Sequence record: PQ179042 | Strand: one strand, 5' to 3' | Source of the DNA: Escherichia phage KM02 | Length of the DNA: 40,673 nucleotides | In this document: positions 2,821 through 11,002 of the stretch, in pieces | Numbering within the stretch: position 1 is the first letter of the stretch | How the letters are laid out: the number at the start of each line of letters is the position of its first letter | Position numbers and translations under genes: made by a program | Notes under the pieces: generated by a model | What the model saw: only the letters and a program-made list of their open reading frames with translations | Database searches by the model: none | Told to the model about the DNA's origin: nothing

Positions 2821-5502
2821 ATGAGCGTCATCTCTATTGAAAAACACGACTTCTCTGATGTGTCGAACGCCATTGAGCCGTTTAACCTGCTGGCTGACCA
2901 CTACGGGCAAGACCTTGCAGTCAAACAGCTTCAGCTTGAGCACGAGGCATACACTGAAGGCGAGCGACGTTTCATCAAGAACCTTGAGCGCCAGACTGAG
3001 CGCGGGGAACTGGCAGACAATCAGGTCGCCAAGCCTTTGATGCAGACTCTGGTCCCTAATATTGCGCAAGCCGTCAGGGAGTGGCATGAAGGGCCAGACG
3101 GGAAGCTGTCAACCTCTCGTCCTAGCGTAGCGTTCACCGTGTTGAGCACTGAAGAGAAGGCCGTCAAGGACCGCTCTATGCGCATCTCCTGTGAGTCTGC
3201 TGCGGTTATCATACTGAAGGTCATACTCTCCAAGCTGGTCAAGCCTGAAGGGATACCGATTACACCGATGGCCTCAGCGATAGGTCGCACACTTGAGGAC
3301 GAAATCCGCTTCGGTCGCATCCGTGACAAGGAGAAAGAGCACTTCAAGAAGGCGATAGCTGATAACCTGAATAAGCGGGCCGGGGCGTCCTACAAGAAAG
3401 CCTACATGCAAGCGGTCGAGGCATCCATGCTGGAGCAAGGCCAACTGGAAGATGCGTGGGGGACTTGGAGTCCGACCGAGGCTGTCCACGTTGGAATCAA
3501 GATGCTGGAGATTGTCATCCAGTCCACACAACTGGTCGAGCTTAAGCGTTACGGTGCTGGCAATGCAGCGGCTGACGTTGAGATGGTCCACCTGTCAGAC
3601 TTCTGGGTCAAGAAGATGGCACAACGAGGATTCAGCCTTGCGGGTATAGCTCCAGTCTACCAGCCTTGCGTCGTTCCACCTAAGCCGTGGACTGGTGTCG
3701 TAGGTGGTGGGTACTGGGCCAAAGGACGCAGACCATTACCACTGATTCGCTTAGGGTCTAAGTCTGCGGTAGCACGCTACGAAGACGTGTATATGCCTGA
3801 AGTCTATGACGCTGTGAACATCATTCAGAATACACCTTGGAAAGTGAACAAGAAGGTTCTGGAAGTGGTGAACATGGTCGAGAAGCTGAACAACACGCCT
3901 ATTGATGACATACCTCAGATGGAACCGCTGAAGCCTGAGGACTATGCGGGTGAGACTGAAGATGAACTCAAGGCATGGAAGAAGGCTGCTGCTGGTATCT
4001 ACCGCCGAGAGAAGGCACGGCAGTCACGCAGATTGTCACTGAGCTTTATCGTTAACCAAGCGAACAAGTTCTCTCAGTTCAAGGTCATATGGTTTCCGTA
4101 CAACATGGACTGGCGCGGTCGCGTCTACGCTGTGCCGATGTTCAACCCTCAAGGCAACGACATGCAGAAAGGTCTCCTTACTCTGGCAGTCGGCAAGCCT
4201 ATTGGCGCTGATGGTTTCAAGTGGCTGAAGGTCCATGGTGCAAACTGTGCGGGTGTCGATAAAGTCACCTTCGAGGAGCGCATCAAGTGGGTGGAAGACA
4301 ACCACGACAACATCATGGCTGCTGCTAAAGCACCGATGGACAGCATTGAGTGGTGGGGCAAGTTAGACTCTCCGTTCTGTTTCCTCGCGTTCTGCTTCGA
4401 GTATGCTGGCGTAATGCACCACGGCCTGTCTTACTCCTGCTCGCTGCCGATAGCGTTCGATGGGTCCTGCTCTGGTATTCAGCACTTCAGTGCGATGCTT
4501 CGTGACCACATCGGTGGACATGCAGTAAACCTGACGCCATCCGGTAAGGTACAAGACATCTACCGCATTGTGTCTGACCGCATTGAGGAGGAGCTTAAAG
4601 TCCTGCTGATTAACGGTACTGACAACGAGATGGGCACTCACGAGGATAAGAAAACTGGTGAGATTACCGAACGTATCAAGCTGGGGACACGAGAGCTGGC
4701 CCGTCAGTGGCTGACATACGGTATGTCACGCAAGGTCACTAAGCGTTCAGTCATGACTCTGGCCTACGGGTCGAAAGAGTATGGCTTCGCAGACCAAGTT
4801 TACGAGGACATCGTGATGCCAGCGATTGACTCAGGGTCTGGCGCTATGTTCACCGAGCCAAGCCAAGCGGCTCGCTTCATGGCTAATATGATTTGGGAAG
4901 CTGTGAGTGTGACCGTAGTTGCTGCGGTAGACGCTATGAAGTGGCTTCAGGGTGCCGCCAAGCTGCTGGCTGCTGAAGTGAAGGACAAGAAGACTGGAGA
5001 AATCCTGAAGCCTTGCCTTCCGGTACACTGGGTAACACCTGATGGTTTCCCGGTCTGGCAGGAATATCGCAAGAAGGATACCACTCGTCTGAACTTGATG
5101 TTCTTAGGGTCATTCAACCTTCAGCCTACCGTCAACAGGGGTACGAAGAAAGAGCTGGACAAGCACAAGCAGGAGTCAGGCATTAGCCCGAACTTCGTCC
5201 ACTCACAAGATGGTAGCCACCTACGCAAGACTGTAGTCCATACTCACCGCAAGTATGGCGTGATGTCGTTCGCAGTGATTCACGATAGCTTCGGGACCAT
5301 CCCGGCTGACGCTGAGTATCTGTTCCGTGGGGTCCGTGAGACTATGGTCGAGACCTACCTAGACAACGATGTGCTGCTTGACTTCTACGAGCAGTTTGAA
5401 TACCAGCTTCACGAGAGCCAGCGCGATAAGTTGCCAGAGCTTCCGAAGAAAGGTAAACTGAATATCGAAGACATCTTGTCTTCAGACTTTGCATTCGCTT
5501 AA
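2821..5502 (+). CDS. 1: DNA-directed RNA polymerase, single-subunit T7-type
   Basis: 893 aa; extensive identity to recalled T7 RNAP motifs (FSDV...PFN.LADHYG, WFPYNMDWRGRVYAV, HGANCAGVDK, ending DFAFA). Confidence 0.98.
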   Translation: MSVISIEKHDFSDVSNAIEPFNLLADHYGQDLAVKQLQLEHEAYTEGERRFIKNLERQTERGELADNQVAKPLMQTLVPNIAQAVREWHEGPDGKLSTSRPSVAFTVLSTEEKAVKDRSMRISCESAAVIILKVILSKLVKPEGIPITPMASAIGRTLEDEIRFGRIRDKEKEHFKKAIADNLNKRAGASYKKAYMQAVEASMLEQGQLEDAWGTWSPTEAVHVGIKMLEIVIQSTQLVELKRYGAGNAAADVEMVHLSDFWVKKMAQRGFSLAGIAPVYQPCVVPPKPWTGVVGGGYWAKGRRPLPLIRLGSKSAVARYEDVYMPEVYDAVNIIQNTPWKVNKKVLEVVNMVEKLNNTPIDDIPQMEPLKPEDYAGETEDELKAWKKAAAGIYRREKARQSRRLSLSFIVNQANKFSQFKVIWFPYNMDWRGRVYAVPMFNPQGNDMQKGLLTLAVGKPIGADGFKWLKVHGANCAGVDKVTFEERIKWVEDNHDNIMAAAKAPMDSIEWWGKLDSPFCFLAFCFEYAGVMHHGLSYSCSLPIAFDGSCSGIQHFSAMLRDHIGGHAVNLTPSGKVQDIYRIVSDRIEEELKVLLINGTDNEMGTHEDKKTGEITERIKLGTRELARQWLTYGMSRKVTKRSVMTLAYGSKEYGFADQVYEDIVMPAIDSGSGAMFTEPSQAARFMANMIWEAVSVTVVAAVDAMKWLQGAAKLLAAEVKDKKTGEILKPCLPVHWVTPDGFPVWQEYRKKDTTRLNLMFLGSFNLQPTVNRGTKKELDKHKQESGISPNFVHSQDGSHLRKTVVHTHRKYGVMSFAVIHDSFGTIPADAEYLFRGVRETMVETYLDNDVLLDFYEQFEYQLHESQRDKLPELPKKGKLNIEDILSSDFAFA

Positions 5503-5520
5503 CAGGAGAGAGAGAGAGCT

Positions 5521-5736
5521 ATGAAATTTGCACACAAGCATACTGGCATTAATGGTGGGACTCAAATCGTGACCGTAACAGAACACAACGGCAAGGGTCT
5601 GGTGAAGACCACGGTCATCCCTACCGAGATGTCCAAGCAGCTTAACATCCCGTTCAAGACTCTTGTAGATCTGGTCGAGTCCAGCCACGAGAAGTACCTG
5701 AAGGACGCAGTGTCCAAACTGGAGCAGACCAAATGA
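5521..5736 (+). CDS. Hypothetical protein
   Basis: 71-aa ORF with SD aggag; follows a (GA)6 run at 5506-5518. Confidence 0.45.
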   Translation: MKFAHKHTGINGGTQIVTVTEHNGKGLVKTTVIPTEMSKQLNIPFKTLVDLVESSHEKYLKDAVSKLEQTK

Positions 5737-5811
5737 CAGACCTACAGTTGCTGGCCTTGTGGCTGGGAGCACTCGCAGTATTCACTTTAATCCAACGCAG
5801 AAGAGGTTAAC

Positions 5812-5834
5812 CCTAAACTATCACTATAGGATTA
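5812..5834 (+). promoter_or_regulatory. Phage-RNAP promoter (T7 phi1.1 analogue)
   Basis: ctaaactatcactatagg at 5813-5830. Confidence 0.75.
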
Positions 5835-5874
5835 GACTCAAGGTCATGACTCAAAGTCGTGGCCTTCATGATTA
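5833..5874 (+). promoter_or_regulatory. Conserved RNase III-site-like motif (copy A; T7 R1.1 position)
   Basis: tagactcaaggtcat-N11-gtggccttcatgatta; near-identical copies at 13420-13461 and 37474-37512. Confidence 0.5.
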
Positions 5875-5907
5875 ACCCTAAATAAACACTACTGGAGATT
5901 TAACCGT

Positions 5908-6087
5908 ATGTATCAGAATACTATCAACTTCGAGCGCATCCGTGAACGTCAGCAGACTGAAGGCTACATACCGAAGGGCCGCAAGCTGAACAAGACTAAA
6001 CGTGGCGGTGGTGTCAAAGGCGCTTTCCGTAATGCTGAAGGTAAAGACTCTATGATCAACCAAGAGAAGTACTTCGTAGGAGCGTAA
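5908..6087 (+). CDS. 1.1: gp1.1-like small basic protein
   Basis: 59-aa ORF with KGRKLNKTKR motif matching T7 gp1.1 as recalled; SD ggag. Confidence 0.55.
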   Translation: MYQNTINFERIRERQQTEGYIPKGRKLNKTKRGGGVKGAFRNAEGKDSMINQEKYFVGA

Positions 6088-6090
6088 GCC

Positions 6091-6342
6091 ATGAGTAAAC
6101 GTTGGTTATTCGACGCATCACCGAGCCAGTGGTCAGCGTTAGGCCGGACTCACCGCGAGATGAGTGAGGCAGGACTTGATGTCAAAATGGATGGCTCGCC
6201 GTGCTCCGGAAAAACTCTGGTAAGAGTAATTGAAGCAGACGGTGTGGGGCTTCTGGTCTCCAGAGAATTTACCGAAGATGAAATCTTTAGCTGTGAGCAA
6301 TGGTGCTTACGACAATTGAACGCTTATAGGAGCTGGAAATAA
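6091..6342 (+). CDS. 1.2: gp1.2-like protein (host dGTPase inhibitor family by position)
   Basis: 83 aa, right size and position, ends in WK like T7 gp1.2; SD aggag. Confidence 0.45.
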   Translation: MSKRWLFDASPSQWSALGRTHREMSEAGLDVKMDGSPCSGKTLVRVIEADGVGLLVSREFTEDEIFSCEQWCLRQLNAYRSWK

Positions 6343-7397
6343 TGACTACGACTATTAAAACTAACCCGCACCGCGCTGTAGATTACTCTGAGTCTGGCGT
6401 TAAGAAGGCTTTGGAAGCTGCTGGGTCACTGGAAGCTGAAGTGAAGTATGACGGTGTGCGGTTGAACCTTCCGGTCTTCCCTACTGGTGAGACTCAATGG
6501 TTGAGCCGTGAGTCCAAAGAGCTTCCGGCCCTAAGCTGGCTGGGCACATCCGGTGACGACATCGGTTCTGCCAAGGCTAGCGACTGGCGATGGTTCCTTA
6601 AACAGGCTGGATACGAAGGTACTGGCCTGATGATTGACGGCGAGGTGATGGTAAAGGGTGTAGACTTCAACACATCCTCAGGACTTATTCGCACGAAGTG
6701 GCTGAAGCCTGATAACCTAAAGTTCAATGACGTAAAGTTTGACGAGATGCCTCGTAAGTCTACAGGCGCTAAGTCTAAACTTCCGTTCCTACTGGCAGCC
6801 GAGCATATCCAAGTGGTTGTATACGGGATTATTGACCTTAACGTCATCCTAGACCCAAAAGCTGAAGGGCCTATCCACAGCGTAACGAGACTGAAGGCCG
6901 AAGCTGTCGTCCCTCTCCTCCAGAAATACTCCCCGGAAATCGACTGGGTGCTATCTGAGAGTCATACAGTGTTTAGCTTAGACGAGCTTACTGACTTGTA
7001 TGAGAAGAAGAGAGAAGAGGGCCATGAGGGTCTGGTAGTTAAAGACCCACTGGGTAAATGGAAGCGTGGCAAGAAGTCAGGCATGTGGAAGATGAAGCCA
7101 AGCGAAGAGGCGGATGGTCATGTTGTGCGCCCTGTGTGGGGTACGGATGGGTTAGCCAACGAAGGCATGGTCATCGGATTTGACGTTATGCTTGAGAACG
7201 GGATGGAGGTCTCCGCAACTAACATTAGTCGCGCCCTTATGTCCGAGTTCACGGAGAATGTTAAGTCAGACCCTGACTACTACAAGGGGTGGGCTTGCCA
7301 AATTACCTACATGGAGAAGACACCAGATGGAAGCCTCCGACACCCGTCATTCGACCAATGGCGGGGGACTGAGGACAATCCAACGGAGAAGATGTAA
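6342..7397 (+). CDS. 1.3: ATP-dependent DNA ligase
   Basis: 351 aa with the ligase adenylation motif KYDGVR; T7 gene 1.3 position. Confidence 0.9.
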   Translation: MTTTIKTNPHRAVDYSESGVKKALEAAGSLEAEVKYDGVRLNLPVFPTGETQWLSRESKELPALSWLGTSGDDIGSAKASDWRWFLKQAGYEGTGLMIDGEVMVKGVDFNTSSGLIRTKWLKPDNLKFNDVKFDEMPRKSTGAKSKLPFLLAAEHIQVVVYGIIDLNVILDPKAEGPIHSVTRLKAEAVVPLLQKYSPEIDWVLSESHTVFSLDELTDLYEKKREEGHEGLVVKDPLGKWKRGKKSGMWKMKPSEEADGHVVRPVWGTDGLANEGMVIGFDVMLENGMEVSATNISRALMSEFTENVKSDPDYYKGWACQITYMEKTPDGSLRHPSFDQWRGTEDNPTEKM

Positions 7398-7579
7398 TGA
7401 TAATTTTTGACCAAGGCATTTGGAAGGTATGGCAACATCCACACTTACAGGTATTCCACATCCTGAAATGGTCTGAGGGAGATGACCCATCCTCTTATGG
7501 GAGCAAGTGGGATTACTTCATACAGAAAGAGTGTTGGAGTATACTCGAGGTAAAGGCATATCTTCAAGCTAACATGTAG
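7397..7579 (+). CDS. Hypothetical protein lying between the ligase stop and a displaced ligase 3' remnant
   Basis: 60-aa ORF; its ATG overlaps the ligase stop (taATGa). Confidence 0.4.
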   Translation: MIIFDQGIWKVWQHPHLQVFHILKWSEGDDPSSYGSKWDYFIQKECWSILEVKAYLQANM

Positions 7580-7582
7580 TAA

Positions 7583-7657
7583 CAATGGCCAGTACTTCGT
7601 CACCCTAGCTTCAAGTGCTGGCGCGGGACGGAAGATAACCCGACCATTAAGAGCTAA
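7583..7657 (+). pseudogene. Displaced, divergent remnant of a ligase C-terminus
   Basis: Encodes QWPVLRHPSFKCWRGTEDNPTIKS, versus the true ligase end SLRHPSFDQWRGTEDNPTEKM; codons differ mainly at synonymous positions. Confidence 0.6.
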
Positions 7658-7666
7658 CTAAATGTC

Positions 7667-7700
7667 AACCCAGTGGTCTTATGACTGCTGGGTTTCTTTG
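7667..7700 (+). terminator. Rho-independent terminator (T7 TE analogue)
   Basis: Stem aacccag (7667-7673) / ctgggtt (7688-7694) followed by tctttg. Confidence 0.55.
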
Positions 7701-7739
7701 CTTATGCTAGCAAGCTATCGTTTGGGCCACCAGCTAGAC

Positions 7740-7762
7740 CCTAAGCTATCACTATAGGACAA
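7740..7762 (+). promoter_or_regulatory. Phage-RNAP promoter (phi1.5-like)
   Basis: ctaagctatcactatagg at 7741-7758; one mismatch to consensus. Confidence 0.65.
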
Positions 7763-7788
7763 CCCTAACCGACCAAAGGAGAAACCTT

Positions 7789-8043
7789 ATGTCTAAAAAC
7801 TTAATGTTCAACCGATTTACTAGAAGCTTCCACCTGTCGCATAGCCCATTCAGCTTCCATAAAGCTAATCAACCATTACCCCGCTTTGGTAAGACAGTGG
7901 CTCTGTCTCCTACAGTTCATGCGCTAGTCACCCGCAAGTCTATGCTGAATGCTATGGATAAAGAACAAATTGATGTACCTGTGGTCGTTACAAAATGGCC
8001 TCGCATTAAGCTGGCACTTCTGGTAATTAAGGAGGCGCTCTGA
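7789..8043 (+). CDS. Hypothetical protein
   Basis: 84-aa ORF with SD aaggag. Confidence 0.5.
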   Translation: MSKNLMFNRFTRSFHLSHSPFSFHKANQPLPRFGKTVALSPTVHALVTRKSMLNAMDKEQIDVPVVVTKWPRIKLALLVIKEAL

Positions 8044-8375
8044 TGACATACTGTGATAGCACCACATACTGTGAAGCATGTAATGGTGACGACCGCTTCC
8101 CGCACGTTGGTAAACTTGTAGGTAGCAAACTACAAGAAATTGATGGCGTCCGCAAGCCGTCCCACTATAAGGTCTTTGATGGTGTGGAATCCATTGAGAT
8201 TATAGCACGGTCAATGACTGTGAGTGAGTTCCGTGGGTTCTGCATGGGTAACGTCCTGAAGTATCGACTCCGAGCTGGTAAGAAGTCCGAGCTGGCTACT
8301 ATGGAGAAGGACCTGAACAAAGCGGACTTCTATCAGGAGCTGTTCGACCTGCACAAAGGTAAGTGCCATGCTTAA
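8043..8375 (+). CDS. 1.7: gp1.7-like protein, C-terminal domain only
   Basis: KPSHYKVFDGVESIEIIARSMTVSEFRGFCMGNVLKYRLRAGKKSEL...KADFYQELF matches the recalled C-terminus of T7 gp1.7; 110 aa versus 196 aa. Confidence 0.65.
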   Translation: MTYCDSTTYCEACNGDDRFPHVGKLVGSKLQEIDGVRKPSHYKVFDGVESIEIIARSMTVSEFRGFCMGNVLKYRLRAGKKSELATMEKDLNKADFYQELFDLHKGKCHA

Positions 8376-8455
8376 TGATATTGTGTATTACTGTGTAGTA
8401 TGCGCCGGAGTTGGAGCACTAATCCTTTTAATATATTGGGCCATAGAGGTGTAAT

Positions 8456-8554
8456 ATGGAAAAGCCGAGTGAGTGGTGCGAGCGTAAATTTGAGGAGACA
8501 GGTAACGTCGATTACCTTCAGCTCTACAACTTATGGAAGGAGCGTGGTCTATGA
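8456..8554 (+). CDS. Small hypothetical protein (32 aa)
   Basis: ATG with SD agaggtg; stop overlaps the gene 2 start. Confidence 0.3.
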
Positions 8555-8709
8555 CTGATGTTGAGAAGAAATACATCGTGGAGCTTGAGGGTTGCGTTCA
8601 GTCCTTCGAGGTTCCGGTGTACGCAAAGTCTCTTGAAGAGGCTACCCTGAAGTCCCAAGAGTATGAGGACGCTGGTTTTGTGGTCGGACGAATCCGTCCT
8701 GAGACCTAA
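8551..8709 (+). CDS. 2: Gp2-like inhibitor of host RNA polymerase
   Basis: 52 aa; SFEVPVYA...[10 protein letters not shown] matches T7 Gp2 SFEVPIYA...AGFEVTRVRP as recalled; SD aaggag. Confidence 0.7.
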
Positions 8710-8727
8710 ACTATCACTGTAGGACAG
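8705..8727 (+). promoter_or_regulatory. Phage-RNAP promoter (phi2.5-like; variant CACTGTAGG)
   Basis: ctaaactatcactgtagg at 8706-8723. Confidence 0.6.
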
Positions 8728-8766
8728 ACGTCCAGTTCGTAACTTTAAATTAGGAGATTTACACCG

Positions 8767-9465
8767 ATGGCTAAAGAGCAACTGAAGACTTTCACCACTC
8801 CTGTAGCTGGTATCGTTGAGCCTTACGCATGGCTTAACAAAGCAGACACCAAGTTTAACGAGCGTGGTGAGCATAAGGTTAACCTGACTTTCAGTCTGGA
8901 TGACCCGAAGGTCCGTAAGATGATTGATGTATTACAGAAGATTCACGACGATGCGTATGCGAAAGCACTCGCAGACCACGAGAAGAACCCACCTCAGGTT
9001 CAGCGTGGCAAGAAGCCTATAGAGCCGCGTGAAGGCGACATGCCGTGGATTGCGAATGGTGACGGTACTGTTACCATGAAGTTTAAATGCTTTGCGTCTT
9101 ACCTGAAAGACGGCAAGTCAGAGCCTATCGTATTACGGTTCTACGACACCGATGCTAAACTCATCCGTGACGTCCCGAATATTGGCGCTGGGTCTAAGCT
9201 GAAGGTAAAGTTTAAAGTCCTGCCGTTCAAGTGGAACGCTGCGACTGGTGCAAGCGTTAAGCTCCAGCTTGAGTCCTGCCTTCTGGTAGAACTGAAGGAA
9301 TGGAAAGGTGATGGTACTGGTGGCGATGGTGGTTGGGGTGATGATGAAGACCTCGGTACTGGCTACAAAGCGTCAACAGATGGTGACTTCGGGTCTGATG
9401 ACTTCGGTGACGATGGTTCCGAAGGTGGTGACGACTCCAGCTCTGGTGGCGATTACGATTTTTGA
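8767..9465 (+). CDS. 2.5: Single-stranded DNA-binding protein
   Basis: 232 aa, identical length to T7 gp2.5; acidic C-terminal tail ending DYDF; internal GKKPIEPREGDMPW. Confidence 0.92.
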   Translation: MAKEQLKTFTTPVAGIVEPYAWLNKADTKFNERGEHKVNLTFSLDDPKVRKMIDVLQKIHDDAYAKALADHEKNPPQVQRGKKPIEPREGDMPWIANGDGTVTMKFKCFASYLKDGKSEPIVLRFYDTDAKLIRDVPNIGAGSKLKVKFKVLPFKWNAATGASVKLQLESCLLVELKEWKGDGTGGDGGWGDDEDLGTGYKASTDGDFGSDDFGDDGSEGGDDSSSGGDYDF

Positions 9466-9896
9466 AGAGACTAAACCGTGAGTCACTGCGGAGTAAGATA
9501 CTAGAAAATGTGACCAGAGAGAATTACTGCTGGATTTGGCAGAAGTCTTTCGGGTCACATGGATATGGTAATATAGGGACTGGGGGACAACGAAATGAGA
9601 CAGTACATAGGGTTTCATACGAAGTGTTCAATGGGACCATACCTGAAAAAATGCTGGTATTACATTCGTGTGACAACCGTAAGTGTTGCAACCCTGAGCA
9701 TTTACGGGTCGGAACATACAAGGAGAACCTCACGGATAGAGACACTAGGTCAAAGCGTGTGGTTGTTATGACTATGGATAAGGCTAGGGAGGCGAGAGCC
9801 TCTGGTCTTTCATGTACTGAACTAGCCACCAAATATGGCCTGTCTTATTCCTCAATGTTTAAGCTATTAAGAGGTGAGACATGGCGAGAAGTATGA
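9462..9896 (+). CDS. HNH homing endonuclease with C-terminal helix-turn-helix
   Basis: Motif YGNIGTGG...VHRVSYEVFNGTIPEKMLVLHSCDNRKCCNPEHL; sits between genes 2.5 and 3; TTG start with no clear SD. Confidence 0.75.
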   Translation: MKRLNRESLRSKILENVTRENYCWIWQKSFGSHGYGNIGTGGQRNETVHRVSYEVFNGTIPEKMLVLHSCDNRKCCNPEHLRVGTYKENLTDRDTRSKRVVVMTMDKAREARASGLSCTELATKYGLSYSSMFKLLRGETWREV

Positions 9897-10333
9897 GTAG
9901 AGGACATCAAGTCGGGGCGTATCGCTCTGGACTGGAGGCAAAGAACCAAGAGTGGCTTGAGAAGAATGGCGTAAAAGCTGAATACGAAGCATATAAGATA
10001 GGCTACGTAGTCCCATCTAGCGATCATTTTTACACGCCAGATTTTATCCTTCCTAACGGTATCATCGTGGAGACCAAAGGTATCTTCGAAAGCGATGACC
10101 GTAAGAAGCACCTTTTGGTACGAGAACAGCACCCAGAGTTAGACATCCGGTTCGTGTTCTCAAGTTCACGCTCCAAGTTATACAAAGGGTCTCCGACCAC
10201 GTATGGCGCATGGTGCGAAAAGAACGGCTTTAAGTATGCCGATAAGTTCATCCCGGTTGAGTGGCTGCGAGAGACGACTGTACGTCTGCCCTCAGGTATC
10301 CTCATCCCCAAGAAGAAAGGAGTTAAGTTATGA
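9881..10333 (+). CDS. 3: Endonuclease I (Holliday junction resolvase)
   Basis: 150 aa; YTPDFILPNGIIVETKG...DDRKKHLLVREQHPELDIRFVFSSSRSKLYKGSPTTYG closely matches T7 gp3. Confidence 0.92.
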   Translation: MARSMSRGHQVGAYRSGLEAKNQEWLEKNGVKAEYEAYKIGYVVPSSDHFYTPDFILPNGIIVETKGIFESDDRKKHLLVREQHPELDIRFVFSSSRSKLYKGSPTTYGAWCEKNGFKYADKFIPVEWLRETTVRLPSGILIPKKKGVKL

Positions 10334-10554
10334 CTCAAGAAGTTGAGGTCGTTCGTAAGCGTCTGACCATTGATAAAATCCCGGTAGGCTATGCGTTTAT
10401 CGTCCACGGTAAGCCGGGTGAAGTGTACGTGAAGATTAGTAACTCTCACGTCTTCAACCATAAGTTGCTCCAGATGCACACCACGGATGCTAACCGCTTC
10501 CAACGTCATCTGAACCTAGTAGCTGTAGAGCTGGTGGTGTATGATGGTGAGTAA
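10330..10554 (+). CDS. Hypothetical protein
   Basis: 74-aa ORF with strong SD aaaggag. Confidence 0.5.
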   Translation: MTQEVEVVRKRLTIDKIPVGYAFIVHGKPGEVYVKISNSHVFNHKLLQMHTTDANRFQRHLNLVAVELVVYDGE

Positions 10555-11002
10555 GGTGCAATTCAACCCACGGTCCCGGACTGACGCTATCTTCGTTCAC
10601 TGTTCGGCTACCAAGCCAGATATGGACATCGGGGTAGAGACCATCCGTATGTGGCATAAGCAGCAAGGCTGGCTTGACGTAGGCTACCACTTTATCATCA
10701 AGCGTGATGGTACTGTGGAAGAAGGTCGCCCGGTAAATGTCGTAGGGTCACACGTTAAGGACTGGAACTCCAAGTCCGTAGGCGTCTGCCTTGTAGGCGG
10801 AATCAACGCTAATGGTAAGTTTGAAGCTAACTTCACTACAGCCCAGATGAACTCCCTGCGCAACAAGCTGGCTGACCTGAAGGTCCTGTATCCTCAGGCA
10901 GAAATCAAAGCACACCATGACGTAGCGCCCAAGGCGTGTCCAAGTTTCGACTTGCAACGCTGGCTGTCTACCAACGAACTGGTAACTTCCGACCGTGGAT
11001 AA
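10541..11002 (+). CDS. 3.5: N-acetylmuramoyl-L-alanine amidase (T7 lysozyme)
   Basis: DAIFVHCSATKP, GWLDVGYHFIIKRDGTVEEGR, KACPSFDL, ELVTSDRG all match T7 gp3.5. Confidence 0.92.
   Translation: MMVSKVQFNPRSRTDAIFVHCSATKPDMDIGVETIRMWHKQQGWLDVGYHFIIKRDGTVEEGRPVNVVGSHVKDWNSKSVGVCLVGGINANGKFEANFTTAQMNSLRNKLADLKVLYPQAEIKAHHDVAPKACPSFDLQRWLSTNELVTSDRG

Follow-up and report, generated by a model that had tools for sequence, protein, structure and literature searches.

The 40,673 nucleotides of Escherichia phage KM02 analysed here (sequence record PQ179042; one strand, called the window throughout) belong to a Kayfunavirus of the K1F group. The intact ATP-dependent DNA ligase gene of this phage, of the T7 gp1.3 type, is a complete reading frame with adenylation and OB domains, matches the Pfam families PF01068 (E=7e-20) and PF17879 (E=2e-31), and ends with the C-terminus ...LRHPSFDQWRGTEDNPTEKM. 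The gene is a mosaic of Kayfunavirus alleles: compared in 66-nt intervals, positions 6342–7067 are 94–100% identical to phages Zappy and/or SR04 (one interval is 85% identical to Zappy and 100% to SR04), positions 7068–7331 are 95–100% identical to ZG49/EcoIv41_Bia, and the nearest sequence to 7332–7397 is contig L016. The ligase gene is followed by a 60-aa gene (ORF60), part of a terminator hairpin, a second ligase 3' end and an early terminator (Table 1). The initial annotation had placed a TE-like terminator after the second ligase end, and a hairpin with a U-tract is indeed found there (7667–7694; −19.4 kcal/mol, z=−5.0), the sole terminator-like site in 7200–7900. With its GC-rich hairpin and U-tract after gene 1.3, it is consistent with an intrinsic (rho-independent) TE terminator. 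In all Kayfunavirus loci examined, this terminator comes after the ligase stop or after an HNH gene. The sequence CCTAAGCTATCACTATAGGACAACC, with what we take to be a resemblance to T7-group promoters, lies further downstream and is identical or nearly so in K1F, Zappy, SR04, PH1061, YZ1, TH16 and the contigs L016 and L017. A 10-bp pairing between the unpaired hairpin arm (7588–7597) and the second ligase 3' end (7613–7622) in the predicted fold was treated as chance (region z=−0.4 against shuffles) and is weakened in L016.

Table 1. Positions of the genes, sequence blocks and signals at the end of the ligase gene in the window.
Feature	Position	Strand	Basis or remark
ATP-dependent DNA ligase gene, T7 gp1.3 type, intact	6342–7397	+	Open reading frame and Pfam
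Copy A, working ligase 3' end (LRHPSFDQWRGTEDNPTEKM, then stop)	7335–7397	+	Codon-by-codon comparison, allele matches
Berlinvirus-like block	7380–7597	+	blastn; limits J1 (7379/7380) and J2 (7594–7599)
GGAG, Shine-Dalgarno-like motif for ORF60	7385–7388	+	In the final ligase codons; the ATG follows after 8 nt
ORF60, 60-aa gene, conserved phage protein	7397–7579	+	phrog_6957; the A of its ATG is the last base of the ligase TAA
Donor early-terminator stump (spacer, 5' arm GGCCAGTAC, loop TTCG)	7580–7599	+	Holds J2
Copy B, putatively non-coding ligase 3' remnant ((R)HPSFKCWRGTEDNPTIKS, then stop)	7598–7657	+	No start codon; behind TAG, TAA
Kayfunavirus early terminator, TE-like (predicted)	7667–7700	+	Fold; 12-bp hairpin and TCTTTGC
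Conserved phage-promoter-like sequence CCTAAGCTATCACTATAGGACAACC	7740–7764	+	Context only; upstream of the gene 1.6 homologue

ORF60 is a real gene, though it is unannotated in phages 285P and PZJ0206. A database search of the 60-aa frame identified a conserved protein of the phrog_6957 family (E=3.5e-19), which it matches over its full length (residues 1–56 against profile positions 1–56 of 63) and which is found at the same position in Berlinvirus. By tblastn, the homologues are 90% identical in Berlinvirus, 63–75% in T7-like phages of Erwinia, Yersinia and Salmonella, and 45–60% in jumbo and T4-like phages; they share the motif W-x-x-GD-x-x-x-SYG-x-x-(W/Y)DY and stop at the same place, after 60–61 aa. 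A word-indexed protein search returned two clusters only, and an exhaustive search of representatives eight; two of these eight, being long repetitive proteins, were regarded as spurious. The Pfam search found no family for ORF60, leaving phrog_6957 as its only match, and thus no nuclease domain of the kind carried by a free-standing homing endonuclease. The AlphaFold model (pLDDT 84) has four strands and a C-terminal helix, and its structural matches are to uncharacterised viral proteins only; Foldseek against the PDB gave nothing significant (best E=1.6, with PC4/Sub1-like folds at E=4–9). The GGAG motif within the last ligase codons is present in all ORF60-bearing phages aligned and missing from Kayfunavirus tails without ORF60; it probably acts as the ribosome-binding site of ORF60, which is presumably expressed. 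In all eight ORF60-bearing T7-like loci examined outside the lineage of the window, the gene begins on the final base of the ligase stop (TAA, or TGA in SPLA4), and a complete hairpin with its U-tract comes after it.

The last 20 ligase codons (copy A) are repeated at 7595–7657, which translates as LRHPSFKCWRGTEDNPTIKS and ends in a stop. The initial annotation had described a ligase ending at 7397 and a copy of its tail at 7583–7657 in another frame, and both its positions and its sequences hold; aligned with each other, the copies are identical at 16/20 residues and 40/63 bases. The match is far above chance: a tblastn search of the window with the last 30 ligase residues finds the site of copy B at E=1.4e-8, and among ~81,000 windows of 20 residues in six frames the runner-up reaches 7/20 identities, against 16/20 for copy B. 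The copies differ at 4, 4 and 15 bases at codon positions 1, 2 and 3, and 11 of the codon differences are synonymous and 4 non-synonymous. The first two codons of the repeated stretch (CTT CGT) consist mostly of junction sequence that comes from the hairpin loop of the donor, and ligase sequence of recipient origin starts at ~7598–7600. Copy B lies in the frame of ORF60, beyond the TAG of that gene plus a subsequent TAA. With ~20 codons, no start codon and a preceding TAG TAA, it does not qualify as a ligase gene, and in annotation the ligase-like stretch 7595–7657 should be named neither a gene nor a frameshifted ligase.

The neighbourhood of the two copies changes its relatives abruptly. Bases 1–45 of copy A (7335–7379) match the functional tails of the Kayfunavirus phages TH16 (42/45) and Milel (41/45) better than that of Berlinvirus 285P (29/45), whereas bases 46–63 are identical to 285P, PZJ0206 and Erwinia phage pEp_SNUABM_03 (18/18) and match the nearest Kayfunavirus at 13/18. 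From this point on, the block 7380–7597 is 92% identical to 285P, BSP161, S523 and PZJ0206 (blastn), while the Berlinvirus ligase upstream of the equivalent of 7380 is only ~74% identical to the window. The block contains the last six ligase codons (PTEKM and stop), ORF60 and, of the early terminator hairpin of the donor, no more than the 5' arm and loop. Aligned to the intact hairpins of 285P (GGTCAGAC-TTTCG-GGTCTGGCC-TTTTCG), nasanit, C2, WX2, SPLA4 and pEp03, the stump at 7580–7599 is without its 3' arm and without a U-tract. From 7598 onwards the sequence is of the YZ1 type: copy B shares 62/63 bases with the functional tail of the YZ1 ligase (Kayfunavirus) and its last 33 bases (33/33) with K1F, and it runs uninterrupted into the terminator exactly as in YZ1, K1F and ZG49. 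When the insert is excised in silico (7000–7334 joined to 7595–7800), the product aligns without a break to ZG49 and EcoIv41_Bia (92%).

Since a Berlinvirus-type block lies between Kayfunavirus segments, two joints must be accounted for. J1 (7379/7380) is a homologous, in-frame joint within the conserved last ligase codons. J2 (7594–7599) lies in the loop of the donor terminator hairpin, where the parents share only 2 exact bases (CG), or 5/6 in an imperfect match (ACTNCG), at recipient ligase codons 332/333; with so little parental homology, it is illegitimate. A single insertion point at 7330–7335, level with the start of copy B and suggestive of one repaired double-strand break at this codon, was considered as the original event and rejected, given that 7335–7379 is of the Kayfunavirus type; the boundary near 7332 is real, but reflects a later crossover between Kayfunaviruses. 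These sources bear out the proposal in the initial annotation that a ligase 3' end and the 60-aa frame were recombined in, stranding the older 3' end, with a 92% Berlinvirus block and a YZ1-like remnant. Its derivation of the segment from a diverged relative is right for 7380–7597, but the contribution of the other genus to the working tail is limited to its final 18 bases. Likewise, the differences between the copies are mostly synonymous, as had been noted; because 7335–7379 is a Kayfunavirus allele, however, they mostly reflect two Kayfunavirus alleles (the FDQW and FKCW types) and not a difference between genera.

The joint is present in assembled contigs from three samples (SRR33209174, SRR30480101 and ERZ791577). 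J2 is found, two substitutions apart, in Logan contig SRR30480101_482 (88% identical overall) and in NODE_14154 of ERZ791577, an ENA metagenome contig. Its presence in contigs of two other samples indicates that it is inherited and not an artefact of assembly. The event is thus not private to the genome of the window but common to two other samples, a refinement of the initial annotation. Two ligase tails occur in only 3 of the 19 sequences checked, namely the window and the two joint-bearing contigs; all 16 other T7-group loci have a single ligase tail and no independent gene at the position of the remnant, the finding that the initial annotation had named as its refutation. Exact-pattern scans for the joint gave no match in IMG/VR or in GTDB genomes, no INPHARED record covers it, and literature searches found no description of the locus.

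The duplication, the sources of the blocks, the positions of the joints and the sharing across three samples can be read directly from the sequences. On these grounds, the locus is very probably a recombination scar, left when one T7-like phage gained a gene from a T7-like phage of another genus. The recipient would have been a Kayfunavirus whose ligase gene led directly into the early terminator, and the donor a Berlinvirus-like phage with ORF60 between ligase and terminator, translationally coupled to the ligase stop. This direction of transfer follows from the donor-side context of ORF60, which retains a complete hairpin. At J1, an in-frame homologous crossover would have retained the 18 bases encoding PTEKM and the stop, with the GGAG motif and the overlapping TAATG. 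At J2, the donor sequence would end in its own hairpin loop and be joined to recipient ligase codons 332/333, so that the last ~19 ligase codons are present twice; a break or a template switch at the hairpin is the probable cause. Deletion and recombination at short repeats and palindromes are known from T7. Copy A completes the working ligase, copy B would be left as untranslated filler between ORF60 and the terminator, and the early transcript would now be closed by the recipient's own terminator. Subsequently, homologous exchanges among Kayfunaviruses probably rewrote the flanks. Between the window and L016, 10/288 sites differ in the core (7335–7622) and 164/1178 in the flanks (Fisher p=7e-8), consistent with homologous recombination having transferred or retained the cassette; the duplicated tail gives this ORF60 cassette homology at either end, which would allow it to pass from one Kayfunavirus background to another. 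At least one such later exchange must be assumed, because bases 1–45 of copy A and copy B are different Kayfunavirus alleles, which a single two-parent event cannot yield. No sequenced phage carries both the exact donor arm GGCCAGT(A/C)C and the ORF60 allele, and the donor is therefore reconstructed from relatives at 92% identity.

Copy B itself has probably been neutral and untranslated since the transfer. The remnants of L016 and L017 carry R to S and P to Q substitutions at positions that are otherwise invariant in the ligase tails examined; the first falls in the conserved LRHPSF motif and the second at a proline invariant in every functional tail examined, which suggests that selection does not act on the remnant. 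Even so, the remnants differ from each other mostly at synonymous sites (6 synonymous, 3 non-synonymous). We attribute this bias to import from working ligase tails, although it can also be read as selection on the frame; the 3' half of the L016 remnant, for instance, is 96% identical to functional ligase tails such as those of LNA5 and EPr2. The retention of the remnant through ~12% background divergence in a compact genome counts against the acquisition of ORF60 having left mere filler, and a role for it is possible.

Such a role could be in coding, copy B being translated as a readthrough extension of ORF60 or as an alternative C-terminus of the ligase (by frameshifting or hopping) and kept by selection. 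Copy B does share the frame of ORF60, and it persists in three diverged genomes whose remnants differ mostly at synonymous positions. This reading is very unlikely, as all three genomes have the double stop TAG TAA between ORF60 and copy B, rather than a single leaky stop, with no start codon; the substitutions in the remnants of L016 and L017 affect the LRHPSF motif and the invariant proline; and each remnant half is near-identical to working tails of other phages, which explains the synonymous pattern. Moreover, ORF60 homologues elsewhere end where ORF60 does, and an Rfam search found no family, including no recoding RNA family. Artefact is less probable still. Kayfunavirus and Berlinvirus have common hosts and habitats and might have been sampled together and assembled into a chimera, and the window may share source reads with the 99.97% identical Logan contig L013. 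Yet the same joints recur in two further assemblies from other samples and different pipelines that are 4–12% diverged, the joints share 2–6 bases with the parents, too few for a k-mer assembler to span, and the ligase frame is kept with ORF60 intact; a chimera is therefore hardly to be entertained. Equally remote is a tandem duplication of the ligase end within one genome, with divergence in place and later insertion of ORF60. The direct orientation of the copies, 260 bases apart, would suit it, but they are only 63% identical to each other and near-identical to different existing alleles (bases 1–45 of copy A to TH16/Milel, copy B to YZ1), and the DNA between them, together with the final 18 bases of copy A, resembles Berlinvirus up to a Berlinvirus hairpin that is cut short.

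The most serious alternative, itself improbable, concerns the trigger of the event: an HNH homing endonuclease would have cut near the ligase 3' end, and the break would have been repaired from a co-infecting Berlinvirus-like genome, the end invading the ligase gene, with synthesis through ORF60, a stall at the terminator hairpin and rejoining by microhomology. In PH1061, JSS1, CLB_P1, PE3-1 and TH16, the slot between ligase and terminator holds an HNH gene, as it does, without annotation, in Zappy and SR04, the nearest relatives of the ligase body of the window. In addition, a joint in a hairpin loop with tiny microhomology would suit synthesis-dependent repair with a template switch. There is, however, no nuclease gene in or beside the cassette in the window, the HNH-free type of junction (stop, CTAAATG, hairpin) is still intact at 7655–7667, so that the cassette does not obviously remove a target, and the product would look no different after a double-strand break of any other cause or a replication slip.

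Taking the locus as the scar of a transfer between genera, copy B might also serve as the homology arm on the right and thereby make the ORF60 cassette portable, so that the scar would hitch-hike with the cassette and promote its spread. Ligase sequence lies on both sides of the cassette, and a Kayfunavirus with a plain junction could therefore gain ORF60 by two homologous crossovers. This role for copy B is possible but doubtful; in a bolder version, breaks made by the HNH homing endonucleases of the same slot may drive the exchanges.

Compared with known arrangements, the locus resembles the ligase–phrog_6957–terminator order of Berlinvirus (285P, BSP161, vB_EcoP_S523, PZJ0206, nasanit, SPLA4) and of T7-like phages of Erwinia, Yersinia and Salmonella. 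Like the 285P group, the window has the same 60-aa gene (90% aa, 92% nt) starting on the last base of the ligase stop, in the same context of PTEKM, stop and GGAG, with the spacer and the 5' arm of the hairpin. Berlinvirus, however, has a complete hairpin and one ligase tail, whereas the hairpin of the window breaks off in the loop, a second ligase tail and a terminator of the Kayfunavirus type come next, and the ligase body is Kayfunavirus. The standard Kayfunavirus junction (K1F, YZ1, ZG49, EcoIv41_Bia, EcoIv39_Milel) is collinear with copy B, the terminator and the promoter-like site at 92–98%, but runs from ligase stop to terminator without an insert, whereas the window has 260 extra bases and its collinear tail is detached from the ligase. 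The HNH inserts are polymorphic in presence and absence among close relatives; they encode a nuclease and leave no duplication of the ligase end, while the insert in the window encodes a 60-aa protein without a nuclease motif and has left one. In Kayfunavirus, this slot thus holds nothing, an HNH gene or ORF60, and the minimal moving unit is predicted to be ORF60 with the 18 ligase bases that carry its ribosome-binding site.

In the model of Hendrix and Hatfull, novel joints and additions of the 'moron' type in lambdoid and other tailed phages arise by non-homologous recombination followed by selection. The locus is a clean yet ordinary case of phage genome mosaicism, an event of a type already known, and leaves the understanding of phage evolution unchanged. 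Illegitimate joints that add a gene are usually deduced from mosaicism, and it is rare that both parental contexts and the direction can still be read. In this locus, the cut donor hairpin and the repeated recipient codons reveal a transfer between genera, from Berlinvirus-like to Kayfunavirus. As in the mosaics of that model, the locus combines an extra gene, abrupt shifts of relatedness, one non-homologous joint and later homologous shuffling. Unlike in morons, the illegitimate joint falls within a gene and has left a partial duplication that can still be seen, and ORF60 uses the overlap with the upstream stop codon and the resident terminator rather than a promoter and terminator of its own.

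The window belongs to a T7-like phage of the genus Kayfunavirus (K1F group), whose sequenced members match positions 8000-32000 at ~93-94% identity over ~90% of the length; the top matches of the ligase region also fall within Kayfunavirus. The structure between the ligase gene and its terminator is a well-preserved recombination scar. A 60-aa gene (ORF60) was most probably taken up from a phage of a different genus by way of two joints, one homologous and one illegitimate, leaving a non-functional second ligase 3' end stranded ahead of the resident terminator. Such events are familiar in mosaic phage genomes; literature searches turned up no account of the present scar. Downstream of the terminator hairpin, the order continues with a promoter-like sequence kept in all relatives and a gene 1.6 homologue.

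Features of the ligase-terminator region and distant homologues of ORF60
Feature	Position	Description
Ligase gene	6342-7397	Adenylation and C-terminal domains present, as expected
Copy A	7335-7397	Working ligase 3' end
J1 (left joint)	7379/7380	In frame; within the conserved ligase stretch GA.GA.AA.CC.AC
ORF60	7397-7579	60 codons; its first base is the final A of the ligase TAA; TAG stop at 7577-7579, then TAA
J2 (right joint)	7594-7599	Donor hairpin loop joined to ligase codon 333 onward, YZ1 type
Copy B	7595-7657	Second ligase tail; reads LRHPSFKCWRGTEDNPTIKS, then stop; in the frame of ORF60; no start codon
Terminator-like hairpin	7667-7700	12-bp stem, then U-tract
ORF60 homologue, Cronobacter phage S13	L014:2531-2701	
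ORF60 homologue, PBECO4	L015:2501-2692	

The initial annotation had proposed a displaced second ligase tail differing from the first mostly at synonymous positions, and both points hold at the coordinates it gave. Copies A and B are identical at 16/20 residues and 40/63 bases, and a tblastn search of the window with the last 30 ligase residues recovers the second copy at E=1.4e-8. The runner-up among the window's 20-mers, taken in all six frames, shares 7/20 residues with the ligase tail. Third codon positions hold 15 of the 23 base differences, and 11 codons differ synonymously compared with four non-synonymously.

The blocks of the region can be assigned to different sources. In a sensitive DNA search, 7380-7597 is 92% identical to the Berlinvirus phages 285P, BSP161, vB_EcoP_S523 and PZJ0206, whose ligase bodies are only ~74% identical to that of the window. 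The first 45 bases of copy A (7335-7379) are of Kayfunavirus type (TH16 42/45, Milel 41/45, 285P 29/45). The remaining 18 (7380-7397) are identical to 285P, PZJ0206 and Erwinia phage pEp_SNUABM_03 (pEp03), and match TH16 and Milel at 13/18. From 7594 on, the top matches are Kayfunavirus ligase tails (e.g., YZ1, 98%). Copy B is identical to the functional YZ1 tail at 62/63 bases, its final 33 bases match K1F at 33/33, and its continuity into the terminator is exactly that of YZ1, K1F and ZG49. When the insert is excised in silico (7000-7334 joined to 7595-7800), the product matches ZG49 and EcoIv41_Bia (Bia) in one piece at 92%. The earlier explanation, that a diverged segment was recombined in and the original ligase 3' end left behind, is thus essentially right.

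J1 is in frame and lies inside a conserved ligase stretch, which makes it a homologous crossover. To its right come 18 bases, CCAACGGAGAAGATGTAA, with GGAG 8 nt before the ORF60 ATG and the overlapping TAATG. This stretch does not vary among 285P, PZJ0206 and pEp03 (15-16/18 in nasanit, C2 and SPLA4), and pEp03 keeps it unchanged although its ORF60 DNA is only 73% identical. From this conservation, these 18 bases would constitute the translation-initiation region of ORF60, and recombinants retaining ORF60 expression would have had to retain them. ORF60-bearing phages outside the window's lineage all have, after ORF60, a short spacer and then an unbroken terminator (GGTCAGAC-TTTCG-GGTCTGGCC-TTTTCG in 285P; GGTCAGTCC-TTAAC-GGGCTGGCC-TTTTTG in nasanit). 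The window retains the donor spacer, 5' arm and loop (TAACAATGGCCAGTACTTCG), after which TCACCCTAGCTTCAAG... begins the ligase sequence. At J2, the parental sequences have in common just CG, or ACTNCG with one mismatch, which makes this join illegitimate. With the donor hairpin cut and a complete recipient terminator beside it, the transfer can be oriented: it ran from a Berlinvirus-like phage to a Kayfunavirus. The orphaned donor 5' arm (7588-7597, GCCAGTACTT) can form 10 base pairs with AAGTGCTGGC in the ligase remnant (7613-7622). This pairing is probably due to chance, because the region is not more stable than shuffled sequences and the pairing is weakened in the Logan contig SRR30480101_482.

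The scar is neither an artefact nor private to the window genome. The exact ORF60 protein is on record in one 40.5-kb Logan contig (SRR33209174_18), which is 99.97% identical to the window and thus represents the same phage. This independent assembly differs from window 4399-10579 by a single 2-base indel over 6183 bases; it is 145 bases shorter overall (40,528 vs 40,673), presumably at the terminal repeats. SRR30480101_482, only 88% identical to the window overall, encodes an ORF60 95% identical and has the same layout: ligase ending PTEKM, ORF60, TAGTAACAATGGCCAGTCCTTAG joined to TCACCC..., second ligase tail and terminator. A degenerate junction pattern retrieved a third case, the ENA metagenome contig ERZ791577 NODE_14154. 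By a ligase-tail peptide pattern, just 3 of 19 T7-group sequences carry two ligase tails, namely the window and these last two contigs. In the two contigs the remnants read LSHPSFKCWRGTEDSPTVKS and LSHPSFKCWRGTEDSQTVKS, each followed by a stop. One R-to-S change hits the conserved LRHPSF motif and a P-to-Q change replaces a proline that all the examined functional ligase tails share; both agree with a remnant that would not be under selection as protein. In the ENA contig (low coverage, 1.8x), the first 55 reverse-complement bases, upstream of TGGTCTGAGGGAG inside ORF60, are wholly unlike the window and SRR30480101_482; this might mark another recombination joint within the gene, or the contig end might be chimeric.

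Later exchanges among Kayfunaviruses have also shaped the locus. Scored in 66-nt windows against relatives, the ligase gene is a mosaic of three stretches of Kayfunavirus alleles that change abruptly near 7068 and 7332. The first, 6342-7067, has 94-100% identity to Zappy and/or SR04 (in one 66-nt window, 85% to Zappy and 100% to SR04); the second, 7068-7331, has 95-100% identity to ZG49/Bia; and the third, 7332-7397, is nearest to the SRR30480101 contig. Certain 66-nt windows match one relative at 100% and others at <40%; for instance, 6738-6803 is 100% identical to Zappy vs 24% to K1F. Between the window and the SRR30480101 contig, 10/288 sites differ in the core 7335-7622 (from copy A through ORF60 and J2 to base 28 of copy B) compared with 164/1178 in the flanks (Fisher p=7e-8). 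The source of the remnant's 3' half differs by genome: K1F/YZ1 type in the window, and 96% identical to working ligase tails of LNA5, EPr2 and others in the SRR30480101 contig. The cassette therefore occurs in more than one Kayfunavirus background, and on both sides the exchange points lie in ligase sequence. The apparently synonymous character of the differences between remnants is explained by their import from functional ligase genes, through crossovers within copy B. Bases 1-45 of copy A represent one Kayfunavirus allele (FDQW type) and copy B another (FKCW type), so that the original acquisition and at least one later homologous exchange are required.

In sister phages, the same slot holds either nothing (K1F, YZ1, ZG49, Bia and Milel, in which the ligase stop leads to the terminator) or an HNH endonuclease gene (PH1061, JSS1, CLB_P1, PE3-1 and TH16, the last with a diverged variant), so the slot accepts different inserts across Kayfunavirus. 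None of these insert-free and HNH-bearing sisters, Zappy and SR04 included, has a duplicated ligase tail. HNH-made breaks might have promoted the acquisition of ORF60, though we regard this as improbable. Because ORF60 does not encode a nuclease, the insert does not qualify as a homing endonuclease element. The ~390-bp ligase-terminator gap of Zappy (L001:2057-2445, OQ870568) and SR04 (L002:2057-2445, OQ870567), unannotated in GenBank, encodes HNH endonuclease-like sequence (…DHINRDPSDNRIENLR…) homologous to the annotated PH1061 gene.

ORF60 belongs to phrog_6957, a family of unknown function, and matched no Pfam family. Its AlphaFold model (pLDDT 84) consists of four strands with a helix at the C-terminus. 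Solved structures yielded no significant match, and the only proteins matched are uncharacterised ones from viruses. Copies directly 3' of the ligase occur in Berlinvirus and related Erwinia, Yersinia and Salmonella phages. Distant copies (45-60% identity) do not adjoin a ligase: those of jumbo Asteriusvirus phages and of the Straboviridae phage Cronobacter S13 are surrounded by small early genes whose function is unknown. The family motif is W-x-x-GD-x-x-RSYG-x-x-(W/Y)DY, and its members occur in enterobacterial podoviruses, T4-like phages and jumbo phages, apparently also in phages of Campylobacter, and always among early genes of unknown function; the family is a candidate host-takeover or anti-defence gene. 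ORF60 is annotated as hypothetical in BSP161 and S523, and it is intact yet unannotated in 285P (L005:1818-2000, NC_015249) and PZJ0206 (L007:1818-2000, MT625440), with 88-90% protein identity to the ORF60 of the window.
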